Of a stretch of 1,074 bases of DNA, positions 1 through 1,074 are shown piece after piece. The translations under genes were made by a program, and so were the position numbers. Numbering within the stretch: the first letter of the stretch is position 1; each line of letters starts with the position of its first letter. This DNA is from Escherichia coli (GTDB lineage: Bacteria; Pseudomonadota; Gammaproteobacteria; Enterobacterales; Enterobacteriaceae), in the NCBI RefSeq assembly GCF_003334385.1, contig NZ_QOWN01000128.1. One strand, given 5' to 3'. The notes under the pieces are model-generated. The model saw only the letters and a list, made by a program, of their open reading frames with translations. It made no database searches and was not told the origin of the DNA.

Positions 1-97
1 CACATGCTGAGGGTGCTGTCCGGGTGCAGCTCCGGGTCGGGCAGGCGGTTACCTGCCGGGTCTGTGGCATACGGGATATCAATGCCCAGGTTACATA
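1..97 (-). CDS. Start of a downstream orphan Rhs core fragment (partial; continues beyond position 1; no recognisable start codon), possibly ybfO/rhsO-like
   Basis: One minus-strand frame is open across 98..1 and reads ICNLGIDIPYATDPAGNRLPDPELHPDSTLSM. Composition jumps to about two-thirds G+C by hand count, matching the Rhs core at the other end of the window. As I recall, the peptide resembles an internal Rhs core segment (…IPYATDPAGNRLPDPELHPDSTL…), but this is from memory. There is no ATG/GTG/TTG and no SD between the immunity stop and this segment. Confidence 0.55.
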
Positions 98-122
98 TAA
101 TAATAAGAGCAATTAACTTAAT

Positions 123-449
123 TTATTTGTTTATAATGCGCTTACTTAATACAAACCATTGAATATACCCTCCTGACAGAAAATAAAGCCATATTATTAT
201 CGCCATAATATACTTACTATCAATCCTTACGCCAATAATGTCTGATACAGTCCCTATAAATATTAGAGCAATAAAGAATACTATGCCTGTTGGAAAACAT
301 ATTACCATCATTCCATAAGACATGAGACTAATTAACTCACTCACATCACGAGTGGAGTCTAATAGTGAAAGTCTATGCATGGAAAAGAATAGTATTAAAA
401 GCGATAAAGCCAGCCATATAGCTCTGAATAAAAAAATAATATATTTCAT
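123..449 (-). CDS. ybfB: Small polytopic membrane protein (108 aa, about 3 predicted TM helices); candidate cognate immunity protein for the Rhs toxin tip
   Basis: ATG at 449-447 and TAA at 125-123. The start overlaps the toxin stop as TAATG, with GGAG (460-457) seven nt upstream. The protein [24 protein letters not shown]...IMAIIIWLYFLSGGYIQWFVLSKRIINK has three long hydrophobic segments (roughly aa 4-24, 46-68, 81-101). The region is about 30% G+C by hand count, typical of Rhs tip/immunity modules. The ybfB symbol is tentative, based on recollection that E. coli YbfB is a 108-aa membrane protein immediately downstream of rhsC. Confidence 0.85.
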   Translation of the reverse strand: MKYIIFLFRAIWLALSLLILFFSMHRLSLLDSTRDVSELISLMSYGMMVICFPTGIVFFIALIFIGTVSDIIGVRIDSKYIMAIIIWLYFLSGGYIQWFVLSKRIINK

Positions 450-1074
450 TACATCACTCCGGTGAATACAAATCTAATAAAACGTCCAATGTTATTTCCG
501 GAGCACTTCATCTTACATGTTTCTAAAGAATCATTAGACCAGTCTTGGCAGTTTTTAAATAGCCCTAAATTTATAGGTGTGAATATATCAGGCAATACAG
601 AATAACGCGGCCTTACCTCTTTAAACTTCCCTTTTAAACAGTTCTCCACACAACTATTATCGGTTTCAACGAGGTCACAACGGCCAGCAGCTTCTTTTGT
701 ATCATTACTTGCTTTACCTGGCCCCCATAGACCATCTCCTTTTGATTCTCCCCGTTGGTCTTGGCCACCACAAGTATAGTCCCCTTTACCATCTGGGACA
801 CAAAGATATTGATGATAGAACGGATTCCCCCATATATCTGGACCGCTTCTTTCACCAGTTCCGCCCATTGAATGCAGTGGCTTAATGCATTTTAGTGTTT
901 CTAATCCTAATGGATCTATATTTGAGATCGGATTCAACGGATACTGATAAAAATTCCATCCCCCTTTCAGCCCAATCGGATCCTGAGTGATATATCGCCC
1001 CTGCAGCGGGTCATAATAGCGGTGGCGGTTGTAATACAGGCCGGACTCCTCATCATACTGCTGCCCCGGCAGGC
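449..1074 (-). CDS. rhsC: Rhs-family polymorphic toxin, C-terminal portion (5' end lies beyond position 1074): end of conserved Rhs core plus variable C-terminal toxin tip
   Basis: Minus-strand frame is open from the window edge (codons 1072-1070 downward) to TAA at 451-449. Positions 1072-902 translate to [56 protein letters not shown], which matches the canonical Rhs core C-terminus as I recall it. The ORF track's start at 937 is a TTG (Leu) inside this frame, not the real start. Composition shifts from G+C-rich core to AT-richer tip near 900. The rhsC symbol is tentative: it rests on remembered E. coli K-12 locus architecture (Rhs gene followed by a 108-aa membrane protein, then an orphan fragment) and needs BLAST confirmation. 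Confidence 0.88.
452..901 (-). other. Variable C-terminal toxin (CT) domain of the Rhs protein, about 150 aa, Cys/Gly-rich, family unassigned
   Basis: Sequence immediately after DPLGL: [150 protein letters not shown]. It has nine Cys including two C-x3-C pairs, lower G+C than the core, and sits where Rhs toxin tips sit. I do not recognise a nuclease, deaminase or ADP-ribosyltransferase motif. Confidence 0.75.
457..460 (-). promoter_or_regulatory. Shine-Dalgarno-like GGAG for the immunity gene, embedded in the last codons of the toxin gene
   Basis: Minus-strand sequence ACC GGA GTG ATG TAA TG: GGAG followed by a 7-nt spacer before the immunity ATG (449-447). Arrangement is consistent with translational coupling. 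Confidence 0.5.
902..931 (-). other. Rhs core/tip demarcation motif PxxxxDPxGL ([10 protein letters not shown]), the predicted autoproteolytic boundary
   Basis: Codons 931-929 (P) through 904-902 (L) read [10 protein letters not shown]. The conserved core-like sequence with DPIGLKGG (982-959) lies just upstream. In Rhs and Tc-toxin C proteins this motif marks the end of the conserved shell and the cleavage site that releases the tip. Confidence 0.8.

Follow-up and report, generated by a model that had tools for sequence, protein, structure and literature searches.

Do the steps in base composition along an Rhs locus mark the joints between its modules? The question is raised by a stretch of 1,074 nt of Escherichia coli DNA (the window) whose blocks of differing G+C content were taken, in a preliminary description, to pinpoint recombination joints at about 90 and about 900. 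We regard it as very probable that the window represents the distal RhsC element, in which a core gives way to an A+T-rich cassette of tip and ybfB, with a second, partial core beyond it that carries an older, displaced tip. The module edges are placed by homology, not by composition.

The RhsC locus of strain K-12 matches the window at 99.9% over all 1,074 nt, with one mismatch and on the reverse strand. Gene order and junctions are those of the K-12 RhsC element, in which rhsC, ybfB and an RHS core pseudo-CDS are annotated; that element, consisting of rhsC, ybfB, ybfO/rhsO, ybfC and copies of H-rpt/ISAs1, is the same locus as the window. Reading down from position 1074, sequence comparison identifies the end of the rhsC core, then the RhsC tip, ybfB and a spacer of 30 nt, and finally the beginning of an orphan core fragment. 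The 3' end of the rhsC core (902..1074, minus strand) runs off the window at 1074 and is assigned from its translation, RHS profiles and the K-12 annotation. The RhsC C-terminal tip follows as an open reading frame of 150 codons after DPLGL (452..901, minus strand), with the stop codon TAA at 449-451. The start of ybfB overlaps that stop by one base (TAATG, 451-447), and its reading frame of 108 codons plus stop (123..449, minus strand) corresponds to the annotated protein YbfB. An A+T-rich spacer defined by composition (93..122, no strand, 16.7% G+C) leads from the ybfB stop to the orphan rhs core fragment (1..92, minus strand), which is the start of the ybfO/rhsO pseudo-CDS, extends past base 1 and is recognized by self-match of the locus and by the PGAP pseudo-CDS. 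The modular reading of the preliminary description, with an Rhs core end, an exchangeable tip, a partner gene and a second core fragment, is confirmed by homology; the block at 1-90, which it had left unidentified, is the start of this orphan fragment. Within the window, an Rfam search gave no structured RNA match, a scan for terminator-like sites found none, and no direct or inverted repeats were detected.

The core end scores 75.6 bits against TIGR03696 (Rhs_assc_core, cut-off 32.5) over core-end residues 2-57, and matches positions 1205-1261 of the 1261 in NCBIfam model NF041261 (RHS_core). In the K-12 record, rhsC is a gene of 4,194 nt annotated 'rhs element protein RhsC', with its YD-repeat shell upstream, outside the window. 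The core/tip demarcation motif PxxxxDPxGL (902..931, minus strand) was located in an alignment of the nine K-12 core ends, with the proline at 931-929, then ISNI, then DPLGL at 916-902. The eight other K-12 core ends are 78-94% identical to that of rhsC down to 899-930, where homology among the nine is lost, and the sequence past the motif is unrelated between paralogues. Nucleotide homology to the paralogues collapses from 929 downwards, while protein-level conservation stops at 902. The mismatch map of rhsA versus rhsC has two mismatches across 930-1120, then ten across 905-929; the orphan core of RhsF is identical to rhsC over 902-964, and its alignment goes no further than 902.

At the other end, window 1-92 codes for the YD-type stretch IPYATDPAGNRL. 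Bases 1-77 are 100% identical to rhsC core 874-950 nt upstream of the window end, as found by the self-match, and bases 78-92 retain only degenerate similarity (NLGIDIPY versus NLDIRIPY), so that the fragment begins at 92 by protein-level similarity, where the PGAP pseudo-CDS ends, and at 77 by exact identity. The complete orphan core fragment measures 1,045 nt, and its identity to the end of the rhsC core is 96.7%; its pseudo-CDS is annotated 'missing N-terminus' and is followed by ybfC. In O157:H7 strain TB21-1, the ybfO tip terminates a full-length RHS core gene of 4,200 nt at the same locus. As read from annotation and alignment, ybfO/rhsO is an orphan (dissociated) rhs-CT, with a partial core, a tip of its own and a small downstream gene.

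Natural alleles define the cassette. Between ybfA and ybgA, as in K-12, O157:H7 carries a single full-length rhs gene, which ends in the ybfO tip, and the blocks of the alignment between the two strains stop at window 77 and 905. The 1,871 nt that K-12 has in addition are accounted for by 827 nt (window 78-904) and 1,044 nt (one core repeat). In these alignments the module edges are therefore 77/78 and 904/905, and the exchangeable cassette (78..904, minus strand, 827 nt) comprises the tip, ybfB, the spacer and the novel junction, and lies between direct repeats of core of about 1 kb. It varies between strains as one unit, present or absent: with window 93-901 as query, most of it was found in 2,535 of the 5,426 complete genomes of E. 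coli, and the core parts were found in 3,888. Strain N18-04097 is 100% identical to the window over 93-901. A partial match in strain G5 was considered as an alternative module edge and rejected as an IS1-associated truncation at window-equivalent 142.

The left step in composition agrees with these edges. By block, G+C is 65.6% at 1-90, 36.0% at 91-900 and 50.0% at 901-1074. In a binary segmentation, the strongest break comes out just after base 75 (69% versus 39% G+C, permutation p about 0.003), close to the homology break at 77/78. Over 4 kb the core has 57-73% G+C per 100 nt, and the tip and ybfB have 25-49%; regionally the core lies at about 60-65% along its full length and the tip and ybfB at 31-41%. 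Synonymous sites are also A+T-rich, with a GC3 of 0.30-0.31 in the tip and ybfB versus 0.70-0.84 in the core (0.84 in the orphan fragment start, 1-92). The host background was taken from flanking E. coli genes other than rhs, 8.2 kb in all with 52.6% G+C. Relative to it, a value of 36.0% over 800 nt falls 5.6 sd under the mean, and the G+C of ybfB is lower than in any 330-nt flanking window. The step claimed at about 90 is therefore real and sharp, with its maximum-likelihood position at 75, the expected contrast between G+C-rich Rhs core and A+T-rich tip holds, and the value near 30% given for the immunity gene compares well with the computed 30.9% for ybfB (123-449). The G+C-rich, A+T-rich, G+C-rich pattern itself stands in outline, but its right block, 901-1074, is genome-average rather than G+C-rich. 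Nor does the left block start at the 3' end of the immunity gene (base 123); it starts 31-46 nt further, at the orphan core fragment.

On the right, no compositional step is found at about 900. Bases 871-960 still have 33% G+C, the last 19 core codons (905-961) have 35%, and total G+C climbs only near 960-995. When 77 is imposed as the first break, the likelihood of a second has a local minimum at 875-890, close to the claimed step, and maxima near 605 and in the region of about 960-995. The best two-break model, 75|605, reaches a log-likelihood ratio of 26.9, against 18.0 for 90|900; the best model with three breaks, 75|605|995, separates segments with G+C of 0.69, 0.31, 0.44 and 0.63. The step at 995 is marginal in total G+C (p about 0.07). 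Along the rhsC frame, GC3 is 0.80 up to codon 25 and 0.32 beyond it, the change falling at window 997/998 (p = 0.001), and within the core end it is 0.70 in 962-1072 and 0.32 in 905-961. The right-hand step in G+C and GC3 thus falls within the conserved core, 55-95 nt away from the module edge, and a picture in which two compositions meet at the motif is incomplete. The module edges found by homology, 77/78 and 904/905, do lie close to the positions of about 90 and about 900 that had been tied to the immunity-gene 3' end and to the motif. The right-hand edge is the PxxxxDPxGL motif; composition does not pinpoint it. Nor can 904/905 be equated with a recombination joint, since it is the limit of conserved sequence and not necessarily a crossover point.

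The A+T-rich block is itself not uniform. The break at 605 has a permutation p of about 0.003, and bases 631-870 reach 46% G+C because GC1 (0.57) and GC2 (0.48) are high, with a GC3 of only 0.27; the N-terminal half of the tip is rich in Gly, Pro and Asp. This internal step reflects the amino-acid make-up of the tip, not synonymous sites and not history.

In the account that we favor, the mosaic would be the junction of two DNAs with different compositional histories, and the three-block pattern would arise because a core of about 60-65% G+C (GC3 0.7-0.8) is joined to cassettes with a GC3 of about 0.3. An incoming cassette attached to a piece of core would recombine with the resident core, and the previous tip would be pushed downstream, to persist there as an orphan with a core fragment in front of it. 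This would leave direct core repeats of about 1 kb, and recombination between them could later delete or switch the tip. Under this displacement model, crossovers would fall inside the repeated core segments of about 1 kb. The event that separates the two alleles would have been either an insertion in the K-12 lineage or a deletion in the O157 lineage, and the cassette may have had a foreign, A+T-rich origin. A search for its donor identified none, and all named homologues come from Enterobacteria.

Four other explanations were weighed. The one that survives best, although we think it unlikely, extends the exchanged unit: the last 32 or so core codons (YITQDPIGL...DPLGL, 902-997) would travel with the tips and have their composition, and the mobile edge would lie at about 997, leaving 904/905 as just the place where conservation ends. 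The GC3 step at 997/998 falls just there, the displacement model moves tips attached to core fragments, and rhsB departs from rhsC from about 953, before rhsA does. Yet 930-1074 is nearly identical in rhsA, rhsC, ybfO and yibJ (2-3 mismatches) despite their different tips, the A+T-rich codons there specify conserved Asn, Phe, Tyr and Gln, and the G+C-rich core piece in the orphans is about 1 kb long instead of 95 nt.

Less probable still is that the A+T-richness of the cassette is kept by regulatory selection, through H-NS-type silencers or internal promoters, rather than by ancestry. H-NS-type silencers prefer A+T-rich DNA, and the cassette, at 31-41% G+C in a genome of 51%, contains promoter-like hexamers; these sites, however, occur at chance level (5 seen versus 3.8 expected), and such selection would be compatible with a foreign origin as well.

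We give very little credence to the idea that the A+T-richness is a by-product of protein composition in DNA of the same origin, with a hydrophobic YbfB rich in Ile, Phe, Leu and Lys and a biased toxin. YbfB is indeed very hydrophobic, amino acids do drive the step at about 605, and the A+T-rich core end is kept in all paralogues. Against this, ybfB is A+T-rich at all three codon positions (GC1/2/3 of 0.32/0.31/0.30), the tip has a GC3 of 0.31 while the adjoining core in the same gene and host has 0.70-0.84, the non-coding spacer is at 17% G+C, and the cassette is present or absent between strains as a unit. Because third codon positions and spacer are equally A+T-rich, a purely amino-acid account is rejected for the cassette as a whole.

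Chance fluctuation in a short window, which might be suspected from the small size of the G+C-richer blocks (90 and 174 nt), the departure of the first by only about +2 sd from the flanking background and the average composition of the second, is ruled out for practical purposes by the permutation tests at 75, at 605 and for GC3, and by a saw-tooth profile that extends over kilobases to both sides and is found again in other genera.

YbfB is a small protein with three hydrophobic segments by hydropathy; its gene has 30.9-31.2% G+C, and an NCBIfam search with the protein found no family. Homologues of YbfB lie within about 25 nt downstream of a tip homologue in four other loci, the two adjoining in Buttiauxella, in Salmonella and in two metagenome contigs, where the saw-tooth in G+C is repeated. 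YbfB is the presumed immunity partner of the RhsC tip.

The tip (41% G+C) carries 9 Cys and 20 Gly. By sequence it matched nothing in Pfam, in NCBIfam (where the core part alone was hit) or in PDB; the lone Pfam match, to the OCRE domain, was insignificant (E = 0.019) and was set aside. Foldseek against PDB returned nothing, and hhalign of the tip against YiiX and against an approximate PLAAT3 sequence gave probabilities below 0.1%. Tip homologues form 35 clusters, with named members from E. coli, Shigella, Salmonella and Buttiauxella. The tip thus falls in no described family and is presumed to be a toxin domain; we provisionally infer toxin and immunity functions for the tip and YbfB, respectively. 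In the permuted papain-like cysteine hydrolases (NlpC/P60-LRAT-YiiX-TseH), the catalytic His sits on a beta-sheet, and the helix that comes next has the catalytic Cys at its N-terminal end. As a side lead, the tip may belong to this class: at least 90% of 16 tip sequences share H31 and C119 (in an NCQDW motif), a His and a Cys at the positions expected, and H11 is invariant. We see a reasonable prospect, somewhat short of an even one, that at least one of two further readings is true: that the tip is an LRAT/YiiX/TseH-type cysteine hydrolase acting on the envelope of target cells and blocked by the three-segment membrane protein YbfB, or that the hyperconserved core end belongs compositionally to the exchanged unit. 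The second may follow from the synonymous-site step observed 95 nt upstream of DPxGL. A literature search on rhsC and ybfB returned only unrelated papers and no functional study of RhsC-CT or YbfB; the fold lead could steer simple toxicity and immunity work on the K-12 pair of rhsC tip and ybfB.

The finding otherwise matters little beyond correct annotation. Composition places the orphan-core junction within about 2-15 nt and the core/tip edge wrongly by 55-95 nt. Since G+C steps misplace the core/tip edge, module boundaries in Rhs loci should be mapped by homology between alleles and paralogues.

Among known systems, RhsF is reportedly, after Zhao and Hill in 1995, a reshuffling of RhsA, RhsC and RhsE components. 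RhsF of strain MSB1_6C, located near metJ/yiiX, resembles window 1-550 at 98.7% (core-fragment start, spacer, ybfB and tip 3' end) and has the same 77/78 junction. It differs in having a ybfB/tip remnant, with the tip cut by an ISAs1 copy at window-equivalent 550, and in that its downstream core fragment is joined to a different tip with dsORF-f3.

In CdiA-CT/CdiI systems, a polymorphic C-terminal toxin lies past a conserved demarcation motif, with its cognate immunity gene directly downstream and with displaced orphans; Poole and coworkers are said to have described orphan toxin-immunity modules of this kind in 2011. The CdiA system differs from RhsC in its delivery protein and in having a VENN motif instead of PxxxxDPxGL, and the window contains neither CdiA nor CdiB.

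That Rhs elements combine a G+C-rich core with an A+T-rich tip has been known for E. coli K-12 since the 1990s; the mosaic is a textbook property of these elements and serves routinely to delimit displaced tips (PMC2935791). Jackson et al. (2009, PMC2935791) reported a G+C-rich core with an A+T-rich extension and delimited dissociated tips by a G+C peak together with core homology; the pattern is thus a published diagnostic for Rhs elements and cannot count as independent support, as had been proposed. In their 'C-terminal displacement', orphans consist of a partial core, a conserved core end and a tip, and in the SMA1610 locus of Serratia marcescens the core has 67.7% G+C versus 46.4% in the tip (PMC2935791). 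The G+C contrast, the make-up of the orphan and the boundary signs of such arrays are also present at the RhsC locus, whose architecture is therefore already known. It departs from these arrays in that the tip-side compositional step lies inside the core. E. coli clade I loci were stated to be generally without dissociated tips (PMC2935791), whereas the RhsC locus has one, ybfO.

In Salmonella Typhimurium LT2, recombination within a shared core stretch of 522 bp, 95% identical, activated an orphan (Koskiniemi et al. 2014, PMC3967940). The LT2 rhs-main/rhs-CT-orphan pair and RhsC both share near-identical core, 522 bp at 95% in the one and 1,045 nt at 96.7% in the other, so that homologous recombination swapping the expressed tip would be possible. 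Such recombination has been shown experimentally in Salmonella, and the natural alleles at the RhsC locus are consistent with it.

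Megablast against complete E. coli genomes matched all 1,074 bases of the window at 99.9% identity, over annotation reading rhsC, ybfB and "RHS repeat-associated core domain-containing protein"; parts of the window are repeated a median of 5 times per genome. The window strand is opposite to the gene strand in the K-12 record. The 3' end of rhsC (1074 down to 449, minus strand) translates to 57 core residues, which map to the extreme end of the NCBIfam RHS core models (TIGR03696, 75.6 bits against a cut-off of 32.5), and then a 150-residue tip. The ybfB ORF (449 down to 123, minus) follows at TAATG (447-451), where the rhsC stop shares one base with the ybfB start, an arrangement typical of translationally coupled gene pairs. 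A 30-nt spacer (122-93) lies between ybfB and an orphan core fragment, annotated in K-12 as the start of the ybfO/rhsO pseudo-CDS, an N-terminally truncated rhs that begins at 92 and runs off the window past base 1 on the minus strand. The spacer stays open in the ybfB frame past the ybfB stop (...INK*IKLIALIIICNLGIDIPYATDP...), with no ATG, GTG or TTG start codon between that stop and the core fragment. Across 3-125 (minus) the fragment is in frame with ybfB, whose stop is the sole separator; the shared frame may be coincidence. On the plus strand G+C skew is mostly negative over 121-1020, with cumulative skew down to about -5.7, consistent with minus-strand placement of all three genes. In some strains, including three megablast matches, IS1 insertions break the locus; in strain G5 (L007:5051-5632) the match ends within ybfB at window-equivalent 142, and an IS1 pseudogene lies about 50 nt past.

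The preliminary description had divided the window into a G+C-rich block to about 90, an A+T-rich block to about 900 and a second G+C-rich block, and took their boundaries for module edges and recombination joints. The mosaic itself was recovered in part. G+C is 65.6% in 1-90, 36.0% in 91-900 and 50.0% in 901-1074, and the estimate of about 30% for the immunity gene agrees with 30.9% computed for ybfB. Measured against 8.2 kb of neighbouring non-Rhs E. coli genes (52.6% G+C), the A+T-rich block lies 5.6 sd below background and ybfB below every 330-nt background window; the 65.6% of the first 90 nt exceeds background by only about 2 sd, and the right-hand block is genome-average rather than G+C-rich. 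Breaks were called by likelihood segmentation with permutation tests, then by exhaustive search of models. The top break falls after base 75 and the second after 605 (permutation p about 0.003 for each), and a third, after 995, is marginal (p about 0.07). By exhaustive search the optimal two-break model, 75/605, has LLR 26.9, compared with 18.0 for 90/900, and the optimal three-break model, 75/605/995, gives segments of 0.69, 0.31, 0.44 and 0.63 G+C. The proposed right-hand step fails, since break likelihood dips to a local minimum at 875-890, which makes about 900 nearly the worst position for one; the poor fit there arises because G+C is 33% across 871-960 and 35% in the final 19 core codons (905-961).

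The compositional step at about 605 is no module edge. It is an amino-acid effect of the N-terminal half of the tip, rich in Gly, Pro and Asp, in which G+C at codon positions 1, 2 and 3 (GC1, GC2, GC3) is 0.57, 0.48 and 0.27. GC3 is 0.37 in the C-terminal half, and the three values for ybfB are 0.32, 0.31 and 0.30. Because low G+C in the cassette (tip, ybfB and spacer) reaches synonymous sites and the spacer, at 17%, it is more than a by-product of protein composition; the cassette is presumably of foreign origin. GC3 is 0.84 in the orphan core (3-77), 0.70 in core 962-1072 and 0.32 in core 905-961. Within the rhsC frame it is 0.80 through codon 25 and 0.32 thereafter, a drop at 997/998 (p = 0.001) that precedes the end of DPLGL by 95 nt. 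The last 32 or so core codons (902-997, minus) resemble the tip in GC3 (about 0.32, compared with 0.80 upstream), despite nucleotide sequence near-identical across paralogues with differing tips.

Homology, not composition, resolves the edge positions. Window 1-77 matches at 100% the rhsC core 874-950 nt past the window end, and is also 100% identical to rhsA; 78-92 retains only degenerate similarity (NLGIDIPY versus NLDIRIPY). In full, the orphan core fragment measures 1,045 nt and shares 96.7% identity with the terminal 1,045 nt of the rhsC core. At the other end, homology to the window runs out at 899-930 in eight other K-12 core ends (rhsA, rhsB, rhsD, rhsE and the orphans ybfO, yibJ, yibS and ylbH). 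Mismatches to rhsA number 2 in 930-1120, then 10 in 905-929, and the orphan core of the RhsF element shows identity from 964 down to 902, the alignment end.

The cleanest test of the edges is comparison of K-12 with O157:H7 TB21-1, whose ybfA-ybgA locus has a single 4,200-nt rhs gene with the ybfO tip at its end, then ybfC. The alignment forms two blocks, ending at window-equivalent 77 and 905 and overlapping by a 1,044-nt repeat; K-12 has 1,871 extra bases, 827 (window 78-904) plus 1,044. With the paralogue homology limits, these blocks put the edges at 77/78 and 904/905, the first of which composition located within 2-15 nt and the second of which it missed by 55-95 nt. We infer the direction of the K-12/O157 difference; the architecture, edges and natural alleles are direct observations. 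At the TB21-1 rhsC locus (L012:6207-10973) a full-length rhs has the K-12 orphan tip ybfO as its expressed tip, and ybfC is annotated as frameshifted. The cassette (query 93-901) occurs in 2,779 of 5,426 genomes (at 80% query coverage or more in 2,535), and the ybfO tip with ybfC in 3,605, in some under a full-length "RHS element core protein" annotation. The modular interpretation is upheld in part. The term recombination joint fits only the illegitimate junction at 77-92; 904/905 is a conservation limit. The real crossovers should lie inside the core repeats.

Occurrences elsewhere are further evidence of shuffling of the units. In strain MSB1_6C (L006:3495-6597, the RhsF locus), window 1-550 recurs at 98.7% identity in another Rhs element, adjoining metJ/yiiX, as core-fragment start, spacer, ybfB and tip 3' end; an ISAs1 (H-rpt) pseudogene, which cuts the block, starts 4 nt past the tip remnant, and the core fragment runs into a different tip and "dsORF-f3". 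About 240 genomes have this partial pattern. Buttiauxella, Salmonella and two metagenome contigs contain tip homologues at 66-79% identity, and a YbfB homologue (35-52% identity) lies no more than about 25 nt downstream of each. In these four loci (L008-L011) YbfB diverges faster from the window protein than does the adjacent tip. In 5 kb of the Salmonella enterica contig (L009:2772-7673), A+T-rich stretches alternate with at least four Rhs core ends; this is a displaced-tip array, with saw-tooth G+C as at the window locus.

The tip, presumably a toxin domain with YbfB its presumed immunity protein, matched nothing in Pfam, NCBIfam or PDB sequence searches, and its homologues form only 35 clusters. 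In an alignment of 16 sequences, H11, H31 (in HQYLC) and C119 (in NCQDW) are conserved, as are several further Cys. The tip was modelled with AlphaFold2 at moderate confidence (pLDDT 65.9, pTM 0.62); in the model a strand carries His31, and Cys119 lies at a helix N-terminus. Neither Foldseek against PDB nor profile comparison with YiiX and a PLAAT3 sequence gave a match. YbfB has three hydrophobic segments. That the tip is an envelope-acting cysteine hydrolase, and YbfB a membrane immunity protein, is about an even bet, a reasonable lead only.

The G+C mosaic is a known phenomenon. In the description by Hill and colleagues, a core of some 1,200 codons is G+C-rich and the core extension A+T-rich, and Jackson et al. 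found core fragments and displaced tips in G+C-poor regions after rhs genes, with displaced-tip boundaries definable from the G+C peak and core homology (PMC2935791). The locus has this published C-terminal displacement architecture, in which tips come joined to core fragments and then recombine with the resident core (PMC2935791); here too a tip would most likely enter on a core fragment, followed by recombination with the resident core. In Salmonella an orphan tip was activated through recombination over 522 bp of shared core (PMC3967940); the repeats here, at 1,045 nt, would be an even better recombination substrate.
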